From IMG/VR virus record IMGVR_UViG_2872678658_000002: a DNA stretch of 45,439 bases, one strand, 5' to 3'. Below the pieces are notes generated by a model. It saw only the letters and a list, made by a program, of their open reading frames with translations. It searched no databases and had not been told where the DNA came from. Shown in pieces: positions 1,567 through 44,458 of this stretch; position 1 is the first letter of the stretch; the number at the start of each line of letters is the position of its first letter. This DNA is from a virus (lineage: Duplodnaviria; Heunggongvirae; Uroviricota; Caudoviricetes). Made by a program: the position numbers and the translations under genes.

Positions 1567-3632
1567 ACGACCTCTTTTAATTGCCTGTCATTTAATTCTT
1601 TATGCCATATGCGGAAATTGCGAATATGGCCAAACAGATGTCGTTCTCCAGTATTCGTCTGCCCTCCAAATCGGATATTTTTATCAGCGGTCACGCCATT
1701 ATATTCACAATAAACTTCATTAACCGCTTTACCATTTGTCACCACATGAAAGTGACCATCAGCTTTTGCAATACATCCAAATGTGGTTTTCTCTGCAAAT
1801 ACATCTGTCGCTGCGCTATTAACATACGAGCCTGAAGGGTTTGACAGACTCATATATAACTTACCACTACCTCTGTTGACTGCTGCAATTGCTGATTGCC
1901 CGGTATTGGCTGCTGCTATATCCCACACGCGGGGTGCGGCGTTTGGTGCAATATCCCAGTTTTTATGAATCTCAAGTAAAAAAGTAAATGGTAACTTATA
2001 AAGATTATTTCTGGTGGGGATACTAACCAAATCACTGGCTCTTGTCGTTGCGCTGCCTCCTGAAATAATAAATGATGATACACACGGCCCATTCTCTACT
2101 TGTGGGGTGGCAAGATAAATATAGTCACCAGATACTGTTGCCCCACCCTTCTCAGGAGAATACTGTATCTGAGAGCCTATTTTTAACTCACCATCAATTG
2201 CCTGAATCGTTGCCTCTGCAAAAATCCAGCCCGTGGTCTTATCCTTCCTGACTCGTGCCGTAATTCTGCCGGCAGCACCACCTGTCATATTAATTTCAAG
2301 CGTTTGCGTATCAATGTACGCATCGCCAAGAAAAGTTGTTGCACTTCCGTCATATTTATCAAACCGGATTCGCAACCTTACCTGCAGTTCTGTTTTAAAG
2401 CGACATGAGGTTGTCACGTATTTATTATCGCCTGAGACATCAACTGACTTTGTTGCAGCAATTGATGCCATATTAATAGCCGAAGTTTGCCCAACCAGAG
2501 AATCGTTGCAGACAAACTTTCCATAAGTAAAACCAAAACTATCCGTCCCGGTTTCGGGCACATCCATGTTTGATGACTTCCCCCAGCTGGCTGGACTTTC
2601 CGAATTGAGCATGTAGTTCGTTCTTTGTCCCTCAATAAGCAGGCCATCACACTCAAATCGCGGCTCATTAATTTCCGCCGTTTTCAGTTCGCCAGATTTG
2701 TTGATATATGTTGCCGTTGATGCGCGACTGAAATTAACCTGTTTATCACTGGCGACCTGAACCACATCGTCACCAATAGCTATTTTTTTATAGCCCGGAG
2801 AAAAACCCGCAATCATATCCAGTGAATCGTTAAACGGTATCCACACATCAGGCAGCGGCGGCACTATATTCGCATAGGGCTCTGCAGTCACTTCCGCTGC
2901 GGCTTCTGCGCGGTCTGCCGCCTTTTCAGCTCGTGTCGCTGCCGACAGAGCCTCATCCTTTTTCTGCCCGGCCTTTGTTGCGTCTGCTGCAGCCTCCCGC
3001 GCTTTTGTGGTGGCGACTCCGGCATTTTCAGCGGCTGACTCTGCATTACGGCGGGAAGCCTCTTCACTGTCTGCGGAGGCTTCTTCTGACGCACGGGCAT
3101 TTGTCTCTGAACGTTCTGCCGCTGTTGCTGCGTTTTGTGCGGCTGTTTTTGAAGAAGCTGCCGCTTTCGCGCTGTTACCTGCATTCGTCTCTGATGTTTT
3201 CGCCGCGTTCCTGGACGATGCCGCTGCTGTTTCTGATTTCTTTGCTGCCGCTGCGCTCTGAGAGGCGGCTTCAGCGTTGCGTGCCACATCCTCCACCATT
3301 TCCTGAAAACGGCGCAATGCCTCCGGCATGACATCATCTTCCGTCATGGCACCGAGAAAATCATTCAGCGTCCCCGGACTGGAACCTTCATAGACGGTAA
3401 TGGTCCCAACATGTGATGGCTGAGAACCCTCAATCCACAGGATGACGCTGTACTGACCATACTCAACGTCCATACTGTAACGCCCGGCTTCATCAGGATT
3501 TTCAGAGGCCACCGTGTTCACCAGTACCGTGGTGCTGTTACGCTTTGCCTTCAGTTGAATAGTGCAGTTCTGTATTGGTTTTCCCGCACCATCTTTCAGC
3601 ACACCTGAGATTTTTACTGCTGCCATATCCAC
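1563..3632 (-). CDS. stf: side tail fiber protein (lambda Stf-like N-terminus, divergent C-terminal receptor-binding region)
   Basis: 689 aa; N-terminus MAAVKISGVLKDGAGKPIQNCTIQLKAKRNSTT... matches remembered lambda Stf; Ala/Ser-rich repetitive stalk. Confidence 0.85.
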   Translation of the reverse strand: MDMAAVKISGVLKDGAGKPIQNCTIQLKAKRNSTTVLVNTVASENPDEAGRYSMDVEYGQYSVILWIEGSQPSHVGTITVYEGSSPGTLNDFLGAMTEDDVMPEALRRFQEMVEDVARNAEAASQSAAAAKKSETAAASSRNAAKTSETNAGNSAKAAASSKTAAQNAATAAERSETNARASEEASADSEEASRRNAESAAENAGVATTKAREAAADATKAGQKKDEALSAATRAEKAADRAEAAAEVTAEPYANIVPPLPDVWIPFNDSLDMIAGFSPGYKKIAIGDDVVQVASDKQVNFSRASTATYINKSGELKTAEINEPRFECDGLLIEGQRTNYMLNSESPASWGKSSNMDVPETGTDSFGFTYGKFVCNDSLVGQTSAINMASIAATKSVDVSGDNKYVTTSCRFKTELQVRLRIRFDKYDGSATTFLGDAYIDTQTLEINMTGGAAGRITARVRKDKTTGWIFAEATIQAIDGELKIGSQIQYSPEKGGATVSGDYIYLATPQVENGPCVSSFIISGGSATTRASDLVSIPTRNNLYKLPFTFLLEIHKNWDIAPNAAPRVWDIAAANTGQSAIAAVNRGSGKLYMSLSNPSGSYVNSAATDVFAEKTTFGCIAKADGHFHVVTNGKAVNEVYCEYNGVTADKNIRFGGQTNTGERHLFGHIRNFRIWHKELNDRQLKEVV

Positions 3633-3690
3633 TCCACAAAAAAGCCCGCCTGAACCGGCGGGCTGTCATAACACTGTGTTGCCTGGTTAA

Positions 3691-4290
3691 TCAGAATTTA
3701 TAACCGACACCAACGATGAAACCGTCAGTGCGCCAGTCGCCACTGCCGGAACCTTCATAAGCAATATCAATGGCCACGGATTCGGTCGGGTTAAACTGCA
3801 CGCCAGCCCCCCACGCCAGAGACGTGTCGCTGTAGCGACCGTCATCACTTCCGGTCAGCACATCGTCCGTTTTCCCCTTGTTATCAGTTACGCGGAGATA
3901 ATCCCCGGAGAAAGTCGACACACGGCTGTAAGCCACGCCCGCCATCGCATACGTGCTGAACCATTCATTCACGCGTACAGACGGCCCCGCCATCATGCTG
4001 AACCAGCGGTTACGCACGGAATCTTCATGCCAGCGGGTATCGCTGTAGTGCGTTTTTTGCTCATCCTCAGCATTGGCATAACTGAAGGACGTAATCAGCC
4101 CCAGCGCGTCCGTAAACTCATAACGGTATTTCACGTTAATCCCGTTCAGATTATCGCTGCCGGGAGCGTTCGTACGGGCATGAAGATACCCCGCGCTCAG
4201 TGTGGACTGATGTTCAGACGCCCATGCAGGCGCACCGGATACGGACAGACAGATGGCTGCGGACAAAATGGCTGCACATAATTTACGCAT
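3691..4290 (-). CDS. lom: Lom outer-membrane protein (Ail/Lom family)
   Basis: 199 aa, signal peptide, C-terminal ...GVGYKF beta-barrel terminus; position between J and stf as in lambda. Confidence 0.85.
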   Translation of the reverse strand: MRKLCAAILSAAICLSVSGAPAWASEHQSTLSAGYLHARTNAPGSDNLNGINVKYRYEFTDALGLITSFSYANAEDEQKTHYSDTRWHEDSVRNRWFSMMAGPSVRVNEWFSTYAMAGVAYSRVSTFSGDYLRVTDNKGKTDDVLTGSDDGRYSDTSLAWGAGVQFNPTESVAIDIAYEGSGSGDWRTDGFIVGVGYKF

Positions 4291-10461: not shown

Positions 10462-13019
10462 CGTCCACCTCCGGAGAACAGACCACCATCGCGCATCTGT
10501 GCCTGGATTTCATCACGGGCACCCTTGCGGGCCATGTCATACACCGCCTTCATCATCTGTGGACCTGGCAGACCATTCGTACCGTCGTTCTGAATCACCA
10601 CGTTGTTGTTCTGCTCAAACCTGATACCCTCTGAACGCCGCATTTGCGCCGGACTTCCGGTGCCACCGACATAACCGCCGGTGGCATAGCCGCGCATCAG
10701 CCGGTAGAGATTTCCCACGCCAATCCGGCTGGTTGCCTCCTTCGTGAAGACAAATTCACCACGGTGAACAATCCCCGCTGGCTCATATTTGCCGCCGGTT
10801 CCCGTAAATCCTCCGGTTGCAAAATGGAATTTCGCCGCAGCGGCCTGAATGGCTGTACCGCCTGACGCGGATGCGCCGCCACCAACAGCCCCGCCAATGG
10901 CGCTGCCGATACTCCCGACAATCCCCACCATTGCCTGCTTAAGCAGAATTTCTGTCATCATGGACAGCACGGAACGGGTGAAGCTGCGCCAGTTCTGCTC
11001 ACTGCCGGTCAGCATCGCCGCCATATTCTGTGCAATACCATCAAAGGTCTGCGTGGCTGCACTTTTTACCTGCGACATACTGTCCGTGGCGCTCTCTTCC
11101 CACTCACTCCAGCCGGACTTCAGGCCTGCCATCCAGTTCCCGCGAAGCTGGTCTTCAGCCGCCCAGGTCTTTTTCTGCTCTGACATGACGTTATTCAGCG
11201 CCAGCGGATTATCGCCATACTGTTCCTTCAGGCGCTGTTCCGTGGCTTCCCGTTCTGCCTGCCGGTCAGTCAGCCCCCGGCTTTTCGCATCAATGGCGGC
11301 CCGTTTTGCCCGTTGCTGCTGTGCGAATTTATCCGCCTGCTGCGCCAGCGCGTTCAGGCGCTCCTGATACGTAACCTTGTCGCCAAGTGCAGCCAGCTGG
11401 CGTTTGTACTCCAGCGTCTCATCTTTATGCGCCAGCAGGGATTTCTCCTGTGCAGACAGCTGGCGACGTTGCGCCGCCTCCTCCAGTACCGCGAACTGAC
11501 TCTCCGCCTTCCACAAATCCCGGCGCTGCTGGCTGATTTTCTCATTTGCTCCGGCATGCTTCTCCAGCGTCCGGAGTTCAGCCTGAAGCGTCAGCAGGGC
11601 AGCATGAGCACTGTCTTCCTGACGATCGCCCGCAGACACCTTCACGCCGGACTGTTTCGGCTTTTTCAGCGTCGCTTCATAATCCTTTTTCGCCGCCGCC
11701 ATCAGCGTGTTGTAATCTGCCTGCAGGATTTTCCCGTCTTTCAGTGCCTTGTTCAGTTCTTCCTGACGGGCGGTATATTTCTCCAGCGGTGTCTGCAGCC
11801 GTTCGTAAGCCTTCTGCGCCTCTTCGGTATATTTCAGCCGTGATGCTTCGGTATCGCTCTGCTGCTGCGCATTTTTGTCCTGTTGACTCTGCTGTTCAGC
11901 CTTCTTTCGGGCGGCTTCAAGCGCAAGACGGGCCTTTTCACGATCATCCCAGTAACGCGCCCGCGCTTCATCGTTAACAAAATAATCATCCTTGCGCAGA
12001 TTCCAGATGTCGTCCGCTTTCTTAAACGCAGCCTCTGCCTTAATCAGCATCTCCTGAGCGGTATCAGGACGACCAATATCCAGCACCGCATCCCACATGG
12101 ATTTGAATGCCCGTGCTGTCCTGTCTGCCCAGGTTTCCAGCGTGCCCATGTTCTCTTTCAGGCGTCGGGTCTGGTCATCAAACCCTTTCGTTGCGGCCTC
12201 GTTCGCCGCCTGCAATGCCCCGGATTCATCGCCGGAACGCTGCAACTGAGCAACATACGCAATCTGCTCCGCCGTTACGTTATGGAACTGGCGCGCCATC
12301 GCCGTCAGCCCCGACGTCGGGTCAGTGGTCAGCTTCCCGAAGGCTTCAGCGACCTTGTCCACCTCCACGCCGGATGCAGAGGAGAAACGCGCCACACTCT
12401 GGCTGATGGATGCAATCTGAGCCTCACCGCTTACTCCCGCCTTAACCAGTGCGCTGAGTGACTCGCTGGTCTGGTTAAACGTCAGCCCTGCCGCCTGCCC
12501 GGCTCTGGACAGGACCAGCATACGATCTGCCGTCAGACCCGACTGATTGCCGGAAAGGACCAGCGTTTTGTTGAAATCGGACAGGGTTGAGTTACCCTGA
12601 TACCAGGCATACGCCAGCGCACCGGTCGCCACCGCCAGCGAGGTGGCCCCGACCATCGGCAGGGTGATCGCACCGGCAAGCCCCCGGAACATGGGGATCA
12701 TCCCGCCGAAGGAGTCCTTAACCTGACCACCCTGTTGCAGCAGGATCAGCCACGGGCTTTGCCCGCCTGCAAGCTGCGTGGCCACGTCGGTGAACTGTGC
12801 AGGCAGCATACGCATGGCGGCTTTATACTGCCCGACGGAAATCCCCGCTTTCTGTGCAGCCAGCGCCTGTCGGCTCAGCGACTGTTCAACGACTGCCGCT
12901 GTTTTTTTCGCATCACTTTCCGTACCGGAAAAATGACGCCTGACTCTGGCCATCTGCTCGTCAAATCTGGCCGCATCCAGACTTAAATCAACGACCAGAT
13001 CGCCTACCGGTTCAGCCAT
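10458..13019 (-). CDS. H: tail tape measure protein H
   Basis: 853 aa, coiled-coil-rich, lambda H-like; position between T and M. Confidence 0.9.
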   Translation of the reverse strand: MAEPVGDLVVDLSLDAARFDEQMARVRRHFSGTESDAKKTAAVVEQSLSRQALAAQKAGISVGQYKAAMRMLPAQFTDVATQLAGGQSPWLILLQQGGQVKDSFGGMIPMFRGLAGAITLPMVGATSLAVATGALAYAWYQGNSTLSDFNKTLVLSGNQSGLTADRMLVLSRAGQAAGLTFNQTSESLSALVKAGVSGEAQIASISQSVARFSSASGVEVDKVAEAFGKLTTDPTSGLTAMARQFHNVTAEQIAYVAQLQRSGDESGALQAANEAATKGFDDQTRRLKENMGTLETWADRTARAFKSMWDAVLDIGRPDTAQEMLIKAEAAFKKADDIWNLRKDDYFVNDEARARYWDDREKARLALEAARKKAEQQSQQDKNAQQQSDTEASRLKYTEEAQKAYERLQTPLEKYTARQEELNKALKDGKILQADYNTLMAAAKKDYEATLKKPKQSGVKVSAGDRQEDSAHAALLTLQAELRTLEKHAGANEKISQQRRDLWKAESQFAVLEEAAQRRQLSAQEKSLLAHKDETLEYKRQLAALGDKVTYQERLNALAQQADKFAQQQRAKRAAIDAKSRGLTDRQAEREATEQRLKEQYGDNPLALNNVMSEQKKTWAAEDQLRGNWMAGLKSGWSEWEESATDSMSQVKSAATQTFDGIAQNMAAMLTGSEQNWRSFTRSVLSMMTEILLKQAMVGIVGSIGSAIGGAVGGGASASGGTAIQAAAAKFHFATGGFTGTGGKYEPAGIVHRGEFVFTKEATSRIGVGNLYRLMRGYATGGYVGGTGSPAQMRRSEGIRFEQNNNVVIQNDGTNGLPGPQMMKAVYDMARKGARDEIQAQMRDGGLFSGGGR

Positions 13020-19152: not shown

Positions 19153-22833
<3,681 letters not shown>

Positions 22834-25057: not shown

Positions 25058-25333
25058 CTACTTCACTTTTGCTTTTGCTTTTGCTTTTGCTTCCGCTCGC
25101 TTACGCCGGCGCTCTTCTTTCCTCTCGGCTTTTGCCATGTCCATGAATGCCTGCATGATCGAGTTCCGCATCATGTAGCTAACAAAGTGATGATTGACAC
25201 AGCCGTTGAGGCGCAGCTGCTCGCCAAACTCATCCACCGAGGCCAATGCTTCCATCATGCCCTTCTCGCCTTTCATGAACTCTGAGAAGTCGCGCCCCGC
25301 TCTGGAGGCGCATTCAATAACACGATCACTCAT
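25058..25333 (-). CDS. hypothetical protein with C-terminal (AK)n repeat, coupled to KilA-N protein
   Basis: 91-aa ORF overlapping upstream gene by 4 nt; C-terminus encoded by tandem CTTTTG hexamers. Confidence 0.5.
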   Translation of the reverse strand: MSDRVIECASRAGRDFSEFMKGEKGMMEALASVDEFGEQLRLNGCVNHHFVSYMMRNSIMQAFMDMAKAERKEERRRKRAEAKAKAKAKVK

Positions 25334-25827
25334 CCCGGAAGCCCGGGGATCGTAATCTGCAGCTGGTTAGCCAGGGAGTTAATCTCAGCGACCAACACTG
25401 GCTTCGTATAGCGCCATGCTGCCAGCCCTTGTCCGCAGAAGCTCGCCATGTCTTTCTTCTGGTCAAACTCATGACATTTCATGTTGAGCTGCGCACTTAA
25501 GCTGTTGCGATGCTGAAGTTCTCCGGTGAAGTAGTCATCGAGGACTTTATAGGCCGCGTACTTGAACCCGGGGTTTAACCAAGCCGCATAATCGTAAGCA
25601 ACAAACTTCCCGCCATATGTTCCACCGTGTACACCGCGCTCAGTAAAAACCACAGATTCGTGGTTTTTCTCCAGCTCGGCTAAGAACTCTTTGGTCTGCT
25701 TGTTTCGCAGGTAGTGGTAAGGCGATTCAGATTCACTTTTACCACTGGCTTTCCACATATCAGTGAGGCAGATCATGCCATCTTCACCGATACGAATTGG
25801 TTGATTGAAGAGGGTTAATGATTTCAT
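25330..25827 (-). CDS. KilA-N domain protein
   Basis: 165 aa; N-terminal region (IRIGEDGMICLTDMWKASGKS...YLRNKQTKEFLAEL) fits the KilA-N pattern. Confidence 0.55.
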   Translation of the reverse strand: MKSLTLFNQPIRIGEDGMICLTDMWKASGKSESESPYHYLRNKQTKEFLAELEKNHESVVFTERGVHGGTYGGKFVAYDYAAWLNPGFKYAAYKVLDDYFTGELQHRNSLSAQLNMKCHEFDQKKDMASFCGQGLAAWRYTKPVLVAEINSLANQLQITIPGLPG

Positions 25828-28047: not shown

Positions 28048-28725
28048 ATGTCCATCATTTTTAATGGACACTATCGTATGAAACACCGGACCTGGATCAC
28101 TGAAGCTTTACGTCTTCACTTTGAAGAACATTTACCCCGGGTTGTGGCCGGGCGTCGCCTGGGTGTACCAAAATCAACAGTTTGTAGTATGTTCGTGCGC
28201 TTTCGGAGAGCTGGCCTTTCGTGGCCTTTGCCCGCAGGCATGTCGGAGCAGGAACTTGATGCCTGCCTTTACGGACAATTTTCCACGGTACCAGTCGTAC
28301 GTCCTGAAAGCACCGTTATATCCGAAGCCCCCGTGGTAAAAAAACGTCCCCGGCGGCCCAACTTCCCTTATGAGTTTAAAATCGCCTTAGTGGAGCAGTC
28401 ACTGCAGCCCGGAGCCTGTGTGGCGCAGATCGCCCGGGAAAACGGAATCAACGATAACCTGCTCTTCAACTGGCGCCATCAATACCGGAAAGGTGGCCTG
28501 CTGCCTTCCGGAAAAAATATGCCGGCACTGCTTCCCGTGACGTTAACGCCGGAGCCGGATAATAAAATCCCGGCCCCCGCACAGGAACCAGAGCAGATAA
28601 ATACACCGTCCGACAGTCTGTGTTGTGAGCTGGTTCTGCCGGCCGGAACTCTCAGGCTTAAAGGTAAACTGACGCCGGCGTTATTACAGACACTTATCCG
28701 CGAAATAAAAGGGAGCAGCCACTGA
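28048..28725 (+). CDS. tnpA: IS66-family accessory protein TnpA (HTH)
   Basis: 225-aa ORF, HTH-like segments; first of three IS66-type ORFs. Confidence 0.7.
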   Translation: MSIIFNGHYRMKHRTWITEALRLHFEEHLPRVVAGRRLGVPKSTVCSMFVRFRRAGLSWPLPAGMSEQELDACLYGQFSTVPVVRPESTVISEAPVVKKRPRRPNFPYEFKIALVEQSLQPGACVAQIARENGINDNLLFNWRHQYRKGGLLPSGKNMPALLPVTLTPEPDNKIPAPAQEPEQINTPSDSLCCELVLPAGTLRLKGKLTPALLQTLIREIKGSSH

Positions 28726-29072
28726 TGATATCTCTCCCTGCAGGTTCGCGTATCTGGCTGGTTGCAGGTATCACCGATATGCGAAATGGCTTTAACGGCC
28801 TGGCATCAAAAGTTCAGAACGTCCTGAAGGATGACCCGTTCTCCGGACACCTGTTCATCTTCCGCGGACGCCGGGGTGACCAGATAAAAGTGTTGTGGGC
28901 TGACAGTGACGGACTGTGCCTCTTCACCAAACGCCTGGAGCGGGGCCGCTTCGTCTGGCCAGTCACCCGTGACGGCAAGGTGCACCTTACTCCGGCTCAG
29001 TTATCCATGCTTCTTGAAGGTATCAACTGGAAGCACCCGAAACGAACGGAACGCGCTGGAATCCGCATATAA
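28725..29072 (+). CDS. tnpB: IS66-family protein TnpB (orfB)
   Basis: 115 aa, typical IS66 orfB size and sequence, start overlapping tnpA stop. Confidence 0.85.
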   Translation: MISLPAGSRIWLVAGITDMRNGFNGLASKVQNVLKDDPFSGHLFIFRGRRGDQIKVLWADSDGLCLFTKRLERGRFVWPVTRDGKVHLTPAQLSMLLEGINWKHPKRTERAGIRI

Positions 29073-29091
29073 CCCGTTGTAAAGTGAGGAT

Positions 29092-30663
29092 ATGGACACC
29101 TCACTTGCTCATGAGAACGCCCGCCTGCGGGCACTGTTGCAGACGCAACAGGACACCATCCGCCAGATGGCTGAATACAACCGCCTGCTCTCACAGCGGG
29201 TGGCGGCTTATGCTTCCGAAATCAACCGGCTGAAGGCGCTGGTTGCGAAACTGCAACGTATGCAGTTCGGTAAAAGCTCAGAAAAACTTCGTGCAAAAAC
29301 CGAACGGCAGATACAGGAAGCACAGGAGCGAATCAGCGCACTTCAGGAAGAAATGGCGGAAACGCTGGGTGAGCAATATGACCCGGTACTGCCATCCGCC
29401 CTGCGCCAGTCTTCAGCCCGTAAACCGTTACCGGCCTCACTTCCCCGTGAAACCCGGGTTATCCGGCCGGAAGAGGAATGCTGTCCTGCCTGTGGTGGTG
29501 AACTCAGTTCTCTGGGATGTGATGTGTCAGAGCAACTGGAGCTTATCAGCAGCGCCTTTAAGGTTATCGAAACACAACGTCCGAAACAGGCCTGTTGCCG
29601 GTGCGACCATATCGTGCAGGCACCAGTACCTTCAAAACCCATTGCACGCAGTTATGCCGGAGCGGGGCTTCTGGCCCATGTTGTCACCGGGAAATATGCA
29701 GACCATCTGCCGTTATACCGCCAGTCAGAAATATACCGTCGTCAGGGAGTGGAGATGAGCCGCGCCACGCTGGGGCGCTGGACCAGTGCTGTTGCTGAAC
29801 TGCTGGAGCCGCTGTATGACGTCCTGCGCCAGTATGTGCTGATGCCCGGTAAAGTCCATGCTGATGATATCCCCGTCCCGGTCCAGGAGCCGGGCAGCGG
29901 TAAAACCCGGACAGCCCGGCTGTGGGTCTACGTCCGTGATGACCGTAACGCCGGTTCACAGATGCCCCCGGCGGTCTGGTTCGCGTACAGTCCGGACCGG
30001 AAGGGTATCCATCCTCAAAATCACCTGGCCGGTTACAGCGGTGTGCTTCAGGCCGATGCTTACGGTGGTTACCGGGCGTTATACGAATCCGGCAGAATAA
30101 CGGAAGCCGCGTGTATGGCTCATGCCCGGAGAAAAATCCACGATGTGCATGCAAGAGCGCCCACCTACATCACCACGGAAGCCCTGCAGCGTATCGGTGA
30201 ACTGTATGCCATCGAGGCAGAGGTCCGGGGCTGTTCAGCAGAACAGCGTCTGGCGGCAAGAAAAGCCAGAGCCGCGCCACTGATGCAGTCACTGTATGAC
30301 TGGATACAGCAACAGATGAAAACACTGTCGCGTCACTCAGATACGGCAAAAGCGTTCGCATACCTGCTGAAACAGTGGGATGCACTGAACGTGTACTGCA
30401 GTAATGGCTGGGTGGAAATCGACAACAACATCGCAGAGAACGCCTTACGGGGAGTGGCCGTAGGCCGGAAAAACTGGATGTTCGCGGGTTCCGACAGCGG
30501 TGGTGAACATGCGGCGGTGTTGTACTCGCTGATCGGCACATGCCGTCTGAACAATGTGGAGCCAGAAAAGTGGCTGCGTTACGTCATTGAACATATCCAG
30601 GACTGGCCGGCAAACCGGGTACGCGATCTGTTGCCCTGGAAAGTTGATCTGAGCTCTCAGTAA
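29092..30663 (+). CDS. tnpC: IS66-family transposase TnpC
   Basis: 523 aa, N-terminal coiled coil/leucine zipper, Cys-rich zinc ribbon, DDE-like core. Confidence 0.85.
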
Positions 30664-37488: not shown

Positions 37489-37914
37489 TCAATGCACAGC
37501 CACAATATTTCCTGCAGGGCCACCACGATTCATCTGGTTGAAACCAGCGATCGCCACTGCGACAAAATCATCAGCGTCTCTCACCAGTCGTTCCCGCGTC
37601 TCCACTAGTTCCCGAAAATAGGCTGAGCTATGACTGCGCATTCGGGCCACCAGCAGAGGTGGCATTGCTTTTTCGATAGCTGGTAACAACGCCTGAATTT
37701 TTTTAACCGCATCAGGGGTGTCTTTCTCCACCCAGCGGAAAATTTTCTGAGTATTGCGAGCCAGGGCTTCCGGATGGCTGTCGTCATACAGTTCCGGGAA
37801 CGTCATTCCCAGCTCGAAATACGCTTTGGTAATTTTCGCAGCCGGTACTTTTTCGCCGTCCGGATGCGCCCAGGCATTCATCGCCATGCGGATGTGTTCA
37901 TGCTTGATTTTCAT
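37489..37914 (-). CDS. YdaT-like protein (DUF1019; cII-position protein)
   Basis: 141 aa starting MKIKHEHI as remembered for Rac YdaT; follows Cro-like gene. Confidence 0.55.
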   Translation of the reverse strand: MKIKHEHIRMAMNAWAHPDGEKVPAAKITKAYFELGMTFPELYDDSHPEALARNTQKIFRWVEKDTPDAVKKIQALLPAIEKAMPPLLVARMRSHSSAYFRELVETRERLVRDADDFVAVAIAGFNQMNRGGPAGNIVAVH

Positions 37915-38165
37915 GAATCAACTCCCATCAGCTTTTTCGTAGTAGTTTTATTCCTGCCAATAGTTAAAATTGCATCGGCAGAAAATAATCCGTTTGATGC
38001 AAGAGCGATTTTTTCAGCGTAATTTGTTTCGCCGGTATATTCTGTGCGAGGCAATTTTCCGTTATCCATCCATTTATAGATTGCTCTTTGGCTGACACCA
38101 CAAACGTCGGCCACAACAGCAACGCGAACAGTTTTGATTACATCTTCAAGTGTTTTCTGGTTCAT
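37911..38165 (-). CDS. Cro-like HTH regulator
   Basis: start placed at Met25 (ATG at 38165) with GAGGGTG Shine-Dalgarno; HTH segment VVADVCGVSQRAIYKWM; divergent from repressor. Confidence 0.65.
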   Translation of the reverse strand: MNQKTLEDVIKTVRVAVVADVCGVSQRAIYKWMDNGKLPRTEYTGETNYAEKIALASNGLFSADAILTIGRNKTTTKKLMGVDS

Positions 38166-38244
38166 ATCACCCTCACAATGTGAACTTTGAGTACATGCTA
38201 TAACAGAACTGACAGTACATTCAAGAGCGAATATCATTGAACTT
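38166..38244. promoter_or_regulatory. OR-like divergent promoter/operator region
   Basis: palindrome TCACAATGTGA (38173-38183) and direct repeats AGTACAT at 38190 and 38214. Confidence 0.5.
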
Positions 38245-38664
38245 ATGGTTCATGAAGATAAAGCGCGTAAAGAGTTCGCCAGTAGGCTTGCGCTAGCCTG
38301 TGAAAACGCTGGTTATGAACAACATGGAAGGCAGGCAGAAATTGCCCGTCGAATGAAATTAACACCAAAAGCGGTTAGCAAATGGTTTAATGGCGAAACA
38401 ATTCCTCGCCGGGAGAAATTAAGGGAATTAGCAACACTAATAGGAACAACACCAACCTATCTTTTGGGAGAGGATACAGAAGAAAGTGGACAGGTACGTT
38501 TCTATCAGGAGTTAAATCCAAGACAAAAAATCATCATTGACCTTCTGGACGAGCTCCCTGACAGTGAGACAGATGAACTTTTAAAAACTCTTGAAGAGAA
38601 AAAACAGAAGTACAATGCAATTTACGAAGAGTTAGCACGAAAGAAAAAACAAAAAGCCTCTTAA
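38245..38664 (+). CDS. CI-like prophage repressor (HTH_XRE)
   Basis: 139 aa; HTH (GRQAEIARRMKLTPKAVSKWFNG); divergently oriented to Cro-like gene. Confidence 0.7.
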   Translation: MVHEDKARKEFASRLALACENAGYEQHGRQAEIARRMKLTPKAVSKWFNGETIPRREKLRELATLIGTTPTYLLGEDTEESGQVRFYQELNPRQKIIIDLLDELPDSETDELLKTLEEKKQKYNAIYEELARKKKQKAS

Positions 38665-38734
38665 ACCAGCATAAATCCGGTAGCGCCTTCCTCCGGGTTT
38701 GTGCTTCACTTTATCCCATCTCATTTTTTTACAC

Positions 38735-38785
38735 ACAAAATGTACTAAAAGTACTTTACAACAATGAACGCAAAGTACATTATAT
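38735..38785 (+). promoter_or_regulatory. OL/pL-like operator-promoter candidate downstream of repressor
   Basis: ATGTACT (38740), palindromic AAGTACTT (38749) and AGTACAT (38774) share the heptamer seen in the OR-like region. Confidence 0.4.
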
Positions 38786-38965
38786 ACCTGCCACCCACCC
38801 CACCCCACAGAATGCAGGGCAATACTTCGAGTTACCAGGCAGTGGTCAGGGGTTAAGTAGCCAGCCCGAGGCGTAAGAACATGACGGCAGGGTTCAACTT
38901 TAATAACTATGCAGCAGGTTTTTGTTCCGCTACCCCGGCGTTAAGGGGAAACAGAGGATTTCTCA

Positions 38966-39322
38966 GTGGGCGAAGTCAAACATCAGAATGGAAGGCGTCC
39001 AGGGATCAGCAAAGAAACAGCGATGGCGCTTTATATTGATATCAGCGCCATTGCCGGACAGGTAAGAATTATCAGAGCGGTAACTAAGCGGTATGCGCCT
39101 TTACTTCAGAAAGTCTCTGGTGAGTGCACCGAAGATATTGTCAACGATTTCGTCATCAAACTGCGAGGACTCATCTTCAGTTACAAGGTGACCACAATTT
39201 TTGCAGATGGCTCCCGCGAAACTGTCAGAGCCCTGCGGTTTAAAGGATGTGTCAAAGACTTCGCCACCACATTCTGGGCAAGAAAACTTGATTGTATTCA
39301 TAACCAATTTCCTCTCGAGTAA
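38966..39322 (+). CDS. hypothetical protein (first ORF of early-left operon), antisense-overlapping a zinc-ribbon ORF
   Basis: GTG start with AGAGGA 7 nt upstream; same strand as repressor and dicB operon. Confidence 0.35.
   Translation: MGEVKHQNGRRPGISKETAMALYIDISAIAGQVRIIRAVTKRYAPLLQKVSGECTEDIVNDFVIKLRGLIFSYKVTTIFADGSRETVRALRFKGCVKDFATTFWARKLDCIHNQFPLE
39101..39301 (-). CDS. small zinc-ribbon protein (CPECG...CKNCG)
   Basis: 66 aa from ATG 39301 with GAGAGGA Shine-Dalgarno; two CxxC pairs 24 residues apart; acidic C-terminus. Confidence 0.45.
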   Translation of the reverse strand: MNTIKFSCPECGGEVFDTSFKPQGSDSFAGAICKNCGHLVTEDESSQFDDEIVDNIFGALTRDFLK

Positions 39323-39393: not shown

Positions 39394-39612
39394 ATGCAGA
39401 AACGAGAACCCGTCATCATCGCGCCAGACTATACCGATGATGAACTTTATGAGTGGATGCGCCAGAAAATTAATGCAGCGCAGGATCTGAAATGGGCCAA
39501 TGAAGCCAGGGCTAAGCAGGCTGAAAATCTGTCCGCTCTGGAGCAGGATATCACCAATCTGGAAAAAGCAGCGGCATTAAGCATTGCCAGAATGATTACA
39601 TACCCGCGTTAA
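39394..39612 (+). CDS. YdfC-like small protein
   Basis: 72 aa with strong AAGGAG RBS; same size and position as Qin ydfC upstream of dicF. Confidence 0.6.
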   Translation: MQKREPVIIAPDYTDDELYEWMRQKINAAQDLKWANEARAKQAENLSALEQDITNLEKAAALSIARMITYPR

Positions 39613-39952: not shown

Positions 39953-40010
39953 TTTCTGGTGACGTTTGGCGGTATCAGTTTTACTCCGTGACTGCTCTGC
40001 CGCCCTTTTT
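39953..40010 (+). ncRNA. dicF: DicF small RNA
   Basis: TTTCTGGTGACGTTTGGCGGTATCAGTTTTACTCCGTGACTGCTCTGCCGCCCTTTTT matches remembered DicF; lies in long ORF-free structured leader upstream of dicB. Confidence 0.85.
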
Positions 40011-43177: not shown

Positions 43178-43381
43178 ATGAGCAGCTTATTTTTAACCGA
43201 AGATGAATTGCTAATATTAACGGGCTGCAAATATGCAAGCCACCAGCGAAAATGGTTAATGGAAAACGGGCTTCCGTTCTATACCAATCGTAGTGGCAAA
43301 CCGATTGTCAGCCGGGATCTATTTACCTGCAATAAAACTTTACCACCACGCGAGGTAGAGCCGAATTTTGGTGCGATCTGA
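43178..43381 (+). CDS. xis: putative excisionase
   Basis: 67-aa ORF whose stop overlaps the integrase start (TGATG). Confidence 0.5.
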   Translation: MSSLFLTEDELLILTGCKYASHQRKWLMENGLPFYTNRSGKPIVSRDLFTCNKTLPPREVEPNFGAI

Positions 43382-44406
43382 TGGGAAGACGAAGGAAAAA
43401 TCCTGAACACGAAAAATTACCTCCAAATGTATACCCAAATAAATATAGTTATGTATGGAAACCAACATCCAGAGAATCTGTAACACTAACCGCCATCAAG
43501 GATGGTTTAGCTGCTTTATGGAAAAAGTATGAGGAAACTGTAAATAATCGCGATCGTGCAATGACATTCGGTCGCTTGTGGGAAAAATTCCTCGCCAGCG
43601 CCTATTACAGTGACCTCAGTCCAAGAACACAAAAAGATTATCTGCAACATCAAAAAAAGTTGCTTGCCGTATTCGGTAAGGTGCCGGCAGATTCCATAAA
43701 ACCAGAACACATCCGTCGATACATGGACAAGAGAGGGGAACAGAGTAAAACGCAAGCCAACCATGAAAAAAGCAGTATGTCCCGCGTTTACAGTTGGGGG
43801 TATGAGCGAGGGTACGTGAAAGCTAACCCATGTGCAGGTGTAAGTAAATTCAAGGCCAAAAACCGCGAACGATATGTAACCGACAAAGAATACCAGGCAG
43901 TATTAAGCGTTGCACCTCTTCCTGTTTTTATCGCAATGGAAATTGCCTATCTGTGTGCAGCGAGGGTTTCCGATGTGTTATCGCTGAAATGGGAGCAGAT
44001 TGGAAACGACGGGATCTTTATCCAGCAAGGGAAAACAGGAAAAAAACAGATAAAAGCATGGAGTCCACGATTACAGGCGGCGATCGAAAAAGCAAAACAG
44101 TTACCAACATCCGCCTATGTAATCAGCAATCAATACGGCAACCGATATATGTACAAAGGCTTTAACGAAATGTGGGTAGATGCAAGAAATCGTGCTGGAA
44201 AAATTTCAGGTATTTTAACCGACTTCACCTTTCATGATCTGAAGGCGAAAGGAATTTCAGACTATGAAGGAAGCAGCCGGGATAAGCAACTTTTCTCTGG
44301 TCACAAAACCGAAGGGCAAGTGCTAATCTATGACAGGAAGGTTAAAGTTTCACCAACACTTGATGTCCCGTTACCTGAAAATATTCCAAGAAAATATTCC
44401 AAGTAA
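43381..44406 (+). CDS. int: tyrosine integrase
   Basis: 341 aa; C-terminal catalytic region (R...HDLK...VLIYDRK with Tyr); adjacent to tRNA 3-prime end. Confidence 0.85.
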   Translation: MGRRRKNPEHEKLPPNVYPNKYSYVWKPTSRESVTLTAIKDGLAALWKKYEETVNNRDRAMTFGRLWEKFLASAYYSDLSPRTQKDYLQHQKKLLAVFGKVPADSIKPEHIRRYMDKRGEQSKTQANHEKSSMSRVYSWGYERGYVKANPCAGVSKFKAKNRERYVTDKEYQAVLSVAPLPVFIAMEIAYLCAARVSDVLSLKWEQIGNDGIFIQQGKTGKKQIKAWSPRLQAAIEKAKQLPTSAYVISNQYGNRYMYKGFNEMWVDARNRAGKISGILTDFTFHDLKAKGISDYEGSSRDKQLFSGHKTEGQVLIYDRKVKVSPTLDVPLPENIPRKYSK

Positions 44407-44458
44407 TTCCAAGTGTGATTTTTGTCACTGACTTAATGATGTGTAAGTGATTGAATTT

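Follow-up and report, generated by a model that had tools for sequence, protein, structure and literature searches.

A predicted genetic switch of HK022-type immunity specificity upstream of the dicBF operon in an Escherichia coli lambdoid prophage

The immunity region described here lies in a window of 45,439 nucleotides, the whole stretch of DNA that was analysed. A 139-aa immunity repressor is encoded on the plus strand, and cro and a YdaT-family gene are encoded on the minus strand (Table 1). A sequence-only reading of this DNA had placed the CI-like and Cro-like genes divergently around a 79-bp region, and exactly 79 bp (38166-38244) were found between the Cro-like ATG at 38165 and the repressor ATG. 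Its two direct AGTACAT copies are present there on the plus strand (38190-38196 and 38214-38220), as are, past the repressor stop at 38664, the three elements reported ahead of the dicB-containing operon, namely ATGTACT (the reverse complement of AGTACAT, 38740-38746), AAGTACTT (38749-38756) and AGTACAT (38774-38780), a cluster that starts 76 bp and ends 116 bp beyond the stop. A single further AGTACAT occurs in the 45 kb outside these two stretches. The heptamer, which had been taken as the operator unit, was found instead to be made up of the right half-site of a 15-bp imperfect palindrome, with the consensus TGWACT-N3-AGTWCA, and one base flanking it. Five such sites are present in the window, and ATGTACT and AAGTACTT are the two halves of a single site, OL2. 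The OR region comprises three of these inverted-repeat sites rather than two, OR3 having been overlooked. The distance between centres is 24 bp for OR1-OR2, 33 bp for OR2-OR3 and 24 bp for OL2-OL1.

Table 1. Features of the immunity region, with positions in the window
Feature	Position	Strand	Sequence	Description
YdaT-family gene	37489-37914	-		Pfam YdaT_toxin, E 1.1e-9; ATGA overlap with the cro stop codon
YdaT operator match	37904-37921		TTGATTTTCATGAATCAA	Perfect TTGATT-N6-AATCAA at the cro/ydaT junction
cro, 84 aa	37911-38165	-		HK022 Cro family
OR1	38181-38195		TGAACTTTGAGTACA	Immediately downstream of the pR -10, where the cro transcript is expected to start
pR-like promoter (cro-ydaT)	38197-38224	-		-35 TTGAAT (38224-38219), -10 TATAGC (38202-38197); OR2 fills the spacer
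OR2	38205-38219		AGAACTGACAGTACA	24 bp from OR1; homologous to HK022 oR2 GGAACTGATAGTACA
pRM-like promoter (repressor)	38209-38237	+		-35 CTGACA, 17-bp spacer, -10 TATCAT; promoter scan, 10/12 matches
OR3	38238-38252		TGAACTTATGGTTCA	33 bp from OR2; its centre falls on the repressor start codon
Immunity repressor, 139 aa	38245-38664	+		HK022-CI-type HTH (residues ~1-78) and DicA-type C-terminal module (~88-139)
Hairpin directly 3' of the repressor stop	38668-38705	+		-19.2 kcal/mol, z -4.9
OL2	38741-38755		TGTACTAAAAGTACT	Abuts or overlaps the pL -35; matrix rank 2
pL-like promoter (dicBF operon; dicBp equivalent)	38755-38783	+		-35 TTTACA, 17-bp spacer, -10 CATTAT; promoter scan
OL1	38765-38779		TGAACGCAAAGTACA	24 bp from OL2; covers the pL spacer and -10; matrix rank 6
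C-rich pL transcript leader	38790-38900	+		Common to the Rac prophage

With regard to the operators, six HK022 and HK75 operators were the sole training set of a matrix that was scored over the 45,425 positions of the window, and the five sites took ranks 1, 2, 3, 5 and 6. OR3, which is identical to both oR3 and oR1 of HK022, is the highest-scoring 15-mer of the window (20.35), followed among the OR sites by OR1 (17.7, rank 3), located at the same position as HK022 oR1, and OR2 (14.6, rank 5). OL2 is homologous to the HK022 oL site TGTACTATTGGTACT and is located at the same position relative to the pL -35 TTTACA; OL1 is homologous to the oL site TGAACTTTAAGTACA. OR2 and OL1 (13.3) scored below their HK022 counterparts, which reach 17.6 and 21.1 with the same matrix. 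The HK022 reference was the annotation of GenBank X16093, together with Carlson and Little 1993 as cited in PMC8053113. HK022 and the relatives from Klebsiella, Citrobacter and Raoultella have a further site, OL3, 53 bp upstream of OL2. It is absent here: the DNA upstream of OL2 has no relation to HK022 and contains no matrix match of at least 9 bits at that place. A distal operator downstream of cro is absent by the same threshold. The palindrome TCACAATGTGA, which had been pointed out in the intergenic region, is indeed present at 38173-38183, yet it is missing from the relatives and does not belong to the switch. As a candidate operator for Cro or another protein it was rejected as a chance palindrome, being one of 61 palindromes of the 5+1+5 type in the window, where about 44 are expected, and being partly a product of the left half of OR1.

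The promoters are interleaved with these sites. The hexamers of the pR-like promoter, which was identified by eye and was not listed by the strict rule of the promoter scan, agree in position, base for base relative to oR1 and oR2, with the -35 and -10 of the annotated HK022 pR (X16093). The pRM-like -10 ends 7 nt before the repressor ATG, a distance also observed in the relatives sharing the ATTGAAC motif, including HK022 (TATAGT); the repressor mRNA is therefore probably leaderless, as has been shown for CP-933P paaR2 and lambda cI (PMC8630535). The centre of OR2 is located at about -33 of the predicted repressor promoter, a position at odds with lambda-style activation of pRM; autoregulation may thus not be the same as in lambda or as reported for DicA (PMC3441716). 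The hairpin that follows the repressor gene is retained in the variants L020 and L023, where the stem is kept, the loop is different and one G-U pair is replaced by A-U. It has a weak U-tail and was not picked up by the terminator scan; it is probably a terminator that would insulate pL from repressor transcription.

The hexamers of the pL-like promoter are found at the same positions as those of the annotated HK022 pL, TTTACA and CATCAT. In Rac and in about 3,700 E. coli genomes, homology sets in at 38790, the predicted pL transcript start, and includes the C-rich leader, which is not part of the immunity specificity. A put-like antiterminator RNA, as in HK022 and HK75, was rejected for the leader, which showed no significant fold (z +1.2) and, by eye, only a short partial resemblance to putL and putR. 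No Rfam family reached the gathering threshold in the leader or the operator regions, and an E-value search returned one chance-level match. On the minus strand, a terminator-like call at 38778-38751 was discarded: it has only three G-C pairs and arises from the half-site repeats in OL2 and OL1.

Both regulatory proteins had been described as unlike lambda cI/cro or DicA/DicC, and homology to known proteins was found for each. The repressor is 47% identical to HK022 CI over 99 aa (E 6e-32), and its N-terminal part is assigned to Pfam HTH_3: residues 1-78 share 44 of 77 positions (57%) with HK022 CI and 57 of 78 with an S24-type CI from Raoultella, and the recognition helix is near-identical (TPKAVSKWFNGE, versus TPKAISKWFNGE in HK022 CI), with TPKA(V/I)SKWFNGE in common. 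The whole protein is 29% identical to K-12 DicA (E 5e-15, BLASTP, residues 30-137), and the DNA-binding domain is only 23% identical to it. Residues 88-139 contain the DicA-type module LSPRxKxLLELFxELPxSE...EEL. An exhaustive HMMER search located this module in about 40 cluster representatives, always C-terminal and on many unrelated N-terminal domains; a word-indexed search with the C-terminal 64 aa returned fragments of the same protein only. Judging from these alignments, the repressor is a natural hybrid of an HK022-specificity DNA-binding domain and a DicA-type C-terminal module. No Pfam match to Peptidase_S24 was found in its 139 aa. Because the S24 peptidase domain is replaced by the short, helical DicA-type module, RecA-stimulated self-cleavage is not expected. 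Two perfect matches to the LexA box CTGT-N8-ACAG occur in the window, at 10952 and 30231, and none was seen upstream of the KilA-N gene (25330-25827), whose product is the one candidate antirepressor.

Identity of Cro to HK022 Cro is 60% across 73 aa (E 1e-33), and to the Cro proteins of five related loci 48-58%. As the HK022 Cro alignment begins at M1, the 84-aa start was favoured over a 108-aa ORF. The YdaT-family gene also matches PHROG 163, 'CII-like transcriptional activator' (E 3.5e-45), and the assignment agrees with the RefSeq annotation of identical genomes. The footprinted YdaT operator, with the consensus TTGATT-N6-AATCAA, lies where the cro-like gene ends (PMC9986795), and TTGATTTTCATGAATCAA is the only zero-mismatch match to this consensus in the 45 kb. 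It is presumably the control site of a PRE-like promoter, and YdaT is the analogue of CII in prophages of this type.

The layout recurs in 16 related loci spanning seven genera, which were gathered through homologue searches and from a phage collection. The OR1-OR2 and OR2-OR3 spacings of 24 and 33 bp were found in all 17 loci scanned. In the 14 loci that extend past OL, which come from E. coli, Shigella, Salmonella, Raoultella, Klebsiella, Citrobacter and Providencia, an HK022-type N-terminal domain always occurs together with OR1-24-OR2-33-OR3 and the OL2-24-OL1 pair; three metagenomic contigs end before OL and were left outside this count. The arrangement is kept even where a HigBA module or the gene for a 480-aa ATPase is inserted between the repressor and OL. 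Among eight variants of this immunity type, no outer half-site position varies (0/50), versus 55 of 178 other non-coding positions (Fisher p 2.7e-7). OR2 and OR3 are invariant in these variants, OR1 varies only at the central base 38189, and OL1 only at the central positions 38770, 38771 and 38773. The final T of the OR1 copy of the heptamer (38196) varies among close relatives. Across nine sequences spanning genera, GAACTGA-AGT-C of OR2 is invariant.

Phage Tritos carries the region with 99.8% identity and has its genes annotated as CI and Cro; the immunity module was found in 1,047 of 5,426 complete E. coli genomes (about 19%), where the genes are annotated only as generic helix-turn-helix proteins. 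A scan of one genome per species with the repressor protein returned a single locus, from Shigella, which is too close to be informative. A 99.9% identical genome has an integrase annotated as frameshifted, and its late region contains an IS66 element; because of these two features, the prophage copy may be cryptic.

Given these results, we consider it very likely that a lambdoid prophage of E. coli has its genetic switch here, with HK022-type immunity specificity. It would be an ordinary lambdoid switch, since the AGTACAT heptamers are halves of the well-studied 15-bp HK022 operators. The lambda-style OR/OL arrangement under one repressor, as suggested by the sequence-only reading, is thus supported by sites that are orthologous to annotated HK022 operators. 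In the proposed mechanism, a dimer of the repressor would bind the five imperfect palindromes, and occupancy of OR1 and OR2 would turn off the replication genes as well as cro and ydaT. The -35 of the predicted repressor promoter falls within OR2, and its transcript start and ATG within OR3, an arrangement that could provide negative autoregulation. OL2 and OL1 overlap the -35 and -10 of pL, the predicted promoter of the ydfC, DicF and dicB operon, and the same repressor would therefore silence the cell-division inhibitors, like DicA in Qin. Cro, a member of the HK022 family, presumably competes for these operators, and YdaT would fill the CII role through the site at the cro/ydaT junction. 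Induction is more likely to proceed via an antirepressor or by stochastic switching.

Two other readings concern the repeats themselves. The heptamers could be direct repeats bound head-to-tail rather than halves of palindromic operators. Lambda CII reads such a direct repeat, TTGC-N6-TTGC, and the two perfect AGTACAT copies at OR have the same orientation and are 24 bp apart, with left half-sites (GAACT) that match less well than the right ones. However, each heptamer is paired with a second half-site across a constant gap of 3 bp, left halves (TGAAC) and right halves are equally invariant in the relatives, and the last T of the heptamer varies. In addition, OL2 forms a perfect GTACT-N3-AGTAC palindrome and OR3, where no AGTACAT occurs, a full TGAAC/GTTCA one, and the HK022 operators are annotated as 15-bp sites. 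Head-to-tail binding is therefore very improbable. The repeats could also be a chance or compositional feature of AT-rich promoter DNA with no operator role, as promoters are present in both regions and the AGTACAT count of the whole window, 5 versus 2.8 expected, is not significant alone. It is the clustering that is significant: four of the five copies fall within 215 bp of non-coding DNA, none of 20,000 dinucleotide shuffles of both non-coding stretches gave at least three copies, and any 7-mer reached four copies in 19 of 5,000 shuffles. TGWAC-N5-GTWCA was found four times versus 0.14 expected, a number reached in none of 100 shuffles. As the spacing is exactly kept in 17 loci and the half-sites are invariant amid varying flanks, chance is effectively refuted by conservation, and we assign it a negligible probability.

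A further reading accepts the operators but regards them as relics that the hybrid repressor no longer uses in the way HK022 CI does. The repressor could, for example, act on OR only or on single sites without cooperativity, with pL and dicBF silenced mainly by other factors such as H-NS or Rho acting on the C-rich leader. The different C-terminal domain, the loss of OL3, the weaker match of OL1, the C-rich and unstructured pL leader and the possibly cryptic state of the prophage copy (frameshifted integrase and IS66 in the 99.9% identical genome) are all consistent with it. Against this, the outer half-sites of OL1 and OL2 are invariant while the DNA around them varies at 25-40% of columns among the variants, and the same module is carried by the isolated phages Tritos and vB_EcoS-666R9. 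Moreover, HK022-like DNA at OL extends over only about 50 bp in the window, with unrelated flanks on both sides, so that this island was retained despite recombination on either side. We consider the relic reading improbable and retain a functional HK022-type switch as the preferred explanation.

The region carries little weight as a discovery, since the HK022 operator code, layout and logic have been known for decades and the region is a mosaic relative. What it provides is a precise operator and promoter map for the immunity module of 1,047 of 5,426 complete E. coli genomes, and a case of modular evolution in which the DNA-binding domain, OR and the 50-bp OL/pL island stayed together as the repressor C-terminal domain, the CII function, the pL leader and the downstream operon were exchanged. 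Predictions are SOS-independent induction and possible cross-immunity with HK022-type phages. In HK022 CI and lambda, cooperativity and OL-OR looping depend on the C-terminal domain, and because that of the present repressor differs from that of HK022 CI, neither property can be assumed. It is possible, though less likely than not, that the DicA-type module alone gives dimer-dimer cooperativity and OL-OR looping, as the S24 domain does in HK022 CI, and that hosts would be immune to HK022-type phages in a manner not reversible by SOS. This would fit the preserved 24-bp and 33-bp operator geometry. If true, the DicA-type module would be a compact, portable oligomerisation module, and the prophage, in about 19% of complete E. 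coli genomes, would keep dicB and DicF silent meanwhile.

Compared with HK022, the operators belong to the same family, with OR3 identical and the other sites differing mainly in their central bases. The spacings at OR (24 and 33 bp) and at OL (24 bp), the location of OR3 over the repressor ATG and the interleaving of the operators with the pR and pL hexamers are also the same. In contrast, HK022 CI has an S24 peptidase domain where a 50-aa DicA-type module is found here, cII is replaced by ydaT, and pL drives the dicBF operon through a Rac-type leader; OL3, the distal operator downstream of cro, the put sites and nun are not found in the window. Cooperative binding of HK022 CI to adjacent operators at OR and OL, with looping between OL and OR, is reported in PMC8053113.

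Qin of K-12 shares the order of divergent cro-like gene, repressor, promoter and ydfC-DicF-dicB, and in this equivalent arrangement DicA represses dicBp (PMC10448788). DicA is of the same size class as the present repressor, with HTH_3, the same C-terminal module and no cleavage domain. However, the DicA operator Oc, TTGTTAGTCATAACTAACAA (TTGTTAG-N6-CTAACAA; PMC3441716), whose comparison had been suggested as a check, has no match within two mismatches in the window, and the Cro-like protein, as had been stated, shows no similarity to DicC. CP-933P (PaaR2/YdaS/YdaT) and Rac (RacR/YdaS/YdaT) likewise have the YdaT CII analogue after the cro-like gene, with the perfect TTGATT-N6-AATCAA at the junction; a leaderless repressor mRNA is probably shared with CP-933P, and the pL leader is shared with Rac. 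Their repressors and Cro proteins belong to other families, and their operators are different: in CP-933P there are four 18-bp palindromes with the half-site GTTTAGTAA (PMC8630535). Similarity to RacR is only a weak local HTH match (36% over 33 aa, E 1e-4), and none was found for YdaS.

Lambda differs in that its operators and proteins have no specific sequence similarity to those described here. In the prophage, OR3 sits on the start codon, 33 bp from OR2, instead of covering the pRM -10 and -35, OL has just two sites, and the repressor is without the cleavable C-terminal domain. Nevertheless, the divergent repressor and cro promoters overlapped by shared operators, the second set of operators at pL, the 24-bp centre-to-centre distance of the main pair and the leaderless repressor mRNA, predicted here, are all common to both. 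Cooperative binding, OL-OR looping and bistability have been shown for HK022 CI (PMC8053113), CP-933P (PMC8630535) and Qin (PMC10448788).

This analysis revealed that the immunity region of the window carries a lambda-style OR/OL arrangement, as had been proposed from AGTACAT heptamers, with HK022-type operators at both OR and OL that overlap the predicted promoters pR and pL. All of the sequence elements listed by the sequence-only reading were located where it had placed them. Its operator-like sites were confirmed, but each heptamer makes up only the right-hand half of the unit, a 15-bp imperfect palindrome, and a fifth site, OR3, had been overlooked. The TCACAATGTGA palindrome, which had been included in the system, is one among 61 perfect 5+1+5 palindromes in the window and has no counterpart in relatives.

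By count alone, AGTACAT is unremarkable, with five copies in 45 kb against 2.8 expected. Four of these fall in the 79-bp divergent region or in the 136 bp that follow the repressor stop, and none of 20,000 dinucleotide shuffles of these stretches reached even three copies. Only four 17-mers in the window match ATGTACT-N3-AGTACAT at 11 or more of 14 positions, forming two pairs spaced exactly 24 bp each, and a repeat finder independently recovered the same site families. The pattern TGWAC-N5-GTWCA has four matches in the window against 0.14 expected. With a position weight matrix trained on six HK022 and HK75 operators only, the five operators rank 1, 2, 3, 5 and 6 among 45,425 positions; rank 4 is an isolated site at 20274-20288 (TGAACGAACAGTTCA), a perfect match to the operator pattern that lies far from the immunity region, probably a chance occurrence within a structural gene.

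Operators, genes and predicted promoters of the immunity region and the adjoining dicB operon
Feature	Position	Strand	Sequence or remark
OR1	38181-38195		TGAACTTTGAGTACA
OR2	38205-38219		AGAACTGACAGTACA
OR3	38238-38252		TGAACTTATGGTTCA; 33 bp from OR2; centre on repressor ATG
OL2	38741-38755		TGTACTAAAAGTACT
OL1	38765-38779		TGAACGCAAAGTACA
YdaT-family gene	37489-37914	-	
Cro-like gene	37911-38165	-	84 aa
HTH_3 repressor gene	38245-38664	+	139 aa
ydfC	39394-39612		
DicF	39954-40005		Rfam 76.7 bits
dicB, exonuclease gene	downstream of DicF		
Predicted pR	38224-38219 (-35), 38202-38197 (-10)		TTGAAT, TATAGC
Predicted pL	38755-38783		TTTACA-17-CATTAT
Predicted repressor promoter	38209-38237		CTGACA-17-TATCAT; 10/12 matches

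Conservation in related immunity regions, a point fixed beforehand, was observed in every locus reaching far enough. The matrix found OR1-24-OR2-33-OR3 and the OL2-24-OL1 pair in all 14 loci extending far enough downstream (from E. coli, Shigella, Salmonella, Raoultella, Klebsiella, Citrobacter and Providencia), with almost no other hit of at least 9 bits. The OL pair is kept where a HigBA module (in Salmonella) or a 480-aa ATPase gene (in Raoultella) lies between it and the repressor gene. Eight variants of the window immunity type (repressor identity 88-100%) show no variation at the 50 outer half-site positions, compared with variation at 55 of 178 other non-coding positions (p 2.7e-7); the few operator changes fall in central positions. 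HK022-like DNA at the window OL forms an island of ~50 bp (38735-38786) between the DicA-type 3' end with the hairpin and a Rac-type leader. Three metagenomic contigs, two of them matrix-scanned, show the OR triplet only, their sequence ending before OL. These contigs (L010-L012) encode an HK022-type S24 repressor with full OR1-OR2-OR3 and, in the divergent direction, an antiterminator Q gene and lysis genes; cro, cII and replication genes were not called in them, which makes the arrangement unusual or a deleted one. The cargo genes between the repressor gene and OL/pL are a HigB/HigA pair (2553-3220 of the Salmonella locus L005) and an AAA_15/AAA_21 ATPase, a type typical of defence genes (2808-4250 of the Raoultella locus L008); rexAB occupies the same position in lambda.

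With regard to HK022, its cro-OR-cI segment aligned with window 38070-38405 at about 71% DNA identity in a sensitive blastn search of a phage collection. In the annotation of X16093, the oR sites are TGAACTTATGGTTCA, GGAACTGATAGTACA and TGAACTTATGGTTCA, spaced by 24 and 33 bp with the third over the cI start; the pR -10 lies between oR1 and oR2, and the -35 abuts oR2. The oL sites TGTACTATTGGTACT and TGAACTTTAAGTACA lie 24 bp apart around a pL with -35 TTTACA and -10 CATCAT. The window layout agrees base for base, and OR3 is identical.

HK022 Cro shares 60% identity with the window Cro (E 1e-33), the alignment starting at M1 of the 84-aa form. Annotated Cro starts differ: RefSeq gives 84 aa (ATG 38165), whereas phage Tritos (L015) has a 108-aa ORF across OR (3512-3838; window 37911-38237, minus strand). 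Over residues 1-78, the repressor shares 57% identity with HK022 CI and 73% with a Raoultella S24-type CI; the recognition helices compared are TPKAVSKWFNGE (window repressor) and TPKAISKWFNGE. From about residue 88 onwards, the alignment is to the DicA C-terminus rather than to the HK022 CI S24 peptidase domain. Judged by these likenesses, the repressor is a hybrid, its DNA-binding domain being of HK022 specificity and its tail of the DicA type. The two proteins had been described as unlike DicA and DicC, which is true of DicC, to which the Cro-like protein shows no similarity, but not of DicA, to which the whole repressor is 29% identical (E 5e-15). Similarity to YdaS is negligible, and RacR gives a weak local match to the repressor confined to the helix-turn-helix (36% over 33 aa, E 1e-4). 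Searched exhaustively with HMMER, residues 79-139 (window 38479-38661) retrieved 40 cluster representatives, including DicA, the module being C-terminal in all. A Pfam scan of ten module-bearing representatives identified an HTH domain in five, and the N-terminal sequences are otherwise unrelated. The module, with the pattern LxPRQKxLLELFxELPDSExDxLLKTLEEKKxxY..EL, looks portable, with a putative role in dimerisation or as an antirepressor target.

The mode of action that we propose is inferred from HK022 homology and site positions. Repressor dimers would block pR from OR2, inside its spacer, and from OR1, immediately downstream of its -10, and dimers at OL2 and OL1 would block pL, silencing ydfC, DicF and dicB. 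DicA silences dicBp likewise in Qin (PMC10448788). As the predicted repressor promoter ends 7 nt before the ATG, the repressor mRNA would be leaderless, like those of lambda cI and CP-933P paaR2 (PMC8630535). Since OR2 covers the -35 of this promoter and OR3 the start site, the repressor would negatively autoregulate through both. HK022 CI is reported to bind adjacent operators cooperatively, with OL-OR looping (PMC8053113). Lacking an S24 domain, the window repressor is predicted to resist RecA-dependent cleavage. The antirepressor Rem counteracts DicA, which also switches stochastically (PMC10448788). A KilA-N domain gene (25330-25827, minus strand; PHROG 129) is located between lysis genes and packaging genes and gives weak matches of the Rha-like and anti-repressor types; its product is a candidate antirepressor for a non-cleavable repressor. 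The DNA upstream of this gene shows no LexA box.

A stable hairpin directly after the repressor stop (38668-38705; -19.2 kcal/mol, z -4.9) keeps its stem among the variants while its loop changes; its U-tail is weak, and it is probably a terminator that keeps repressor transcripts out of the pL operon. The pL transcript leader (38790-38900; CCACCCACCCCACCCCACAG...) is C-rich, shows no significant fold (z +1.2) and is a possible Rho-utilisation site. Homologous sequence lies downstream of racR in Rac and occurs in about 3,700 of 5,426 E. coli genomes, but is missing from Qin; the homology begins exactly at the predicted pL start. At 37904-37921, TTGATTTTCATGAATCAA is the sole zero-mismatch match in 45 kb to TTGATT-N6-AATCAA, the footprinted YdaT operator consensus (PMC9986795). 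It straddles the cro stop and ydaT start, where CP-933P has OM, which points to a possible PRE-like promoter controlled by YdaT.

The window represents a lambdoid prophage of E. coli that matches the avian-pathogenic strains DE17 and IMT5155 at 99.9% identity over 25 kb, and its integration site adjoins a tRNA-Ser gene and mtfA. The immunity segment (37900-38900, at least 80% of length covered) occurs in 1,047 of 5,426 complete E. coli genomes; Escherichia phage Tritos carries it at 99.8% identity, with its genes annotated as CI and Cro. In DE17, the annotation marks a frameshift in the prophage integrase (window equivalent about 43381-44431) and an IS66-family element (ISCro1) adjoins the holin gene (about 28050-30660); given both, the window copy may be defective. 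In the dicBF leader, an opposite-strand gene (39101-39307, minus) for a 68-aa zinc-ribbon protein of the ECs_2282 family stands in place of ydfA and ydfB, which 14EC020 and Tritos, other carriers of the same immunity region, have there.

By the sequence of its DNA-binding domain, Cro and operators, the window switch belongs to the HK022 immunity family. Two HK022 features are missing, namely OL3 together with the distal operator, and the S24 C-terminal domain of the repressor. The window also has no putL, which HK022 and HK75 carry at the pL leader position. Qin dicA/dicB shares the repressor architecture and downstream operon but differs in operator specificity: comparison with the DicA operator Oc (PMC3441716), a check proposed earlier, found no Oc-like site in the window. 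The window has YdaT and its operator in common with CP-933P and Rac, and the switch would work as that of lambda does. With these two HK022 features missing and parts shared with Qin, CP-933P and Rac, the window switch represents no new mechanism and is a mosaic of a well-understood kind.
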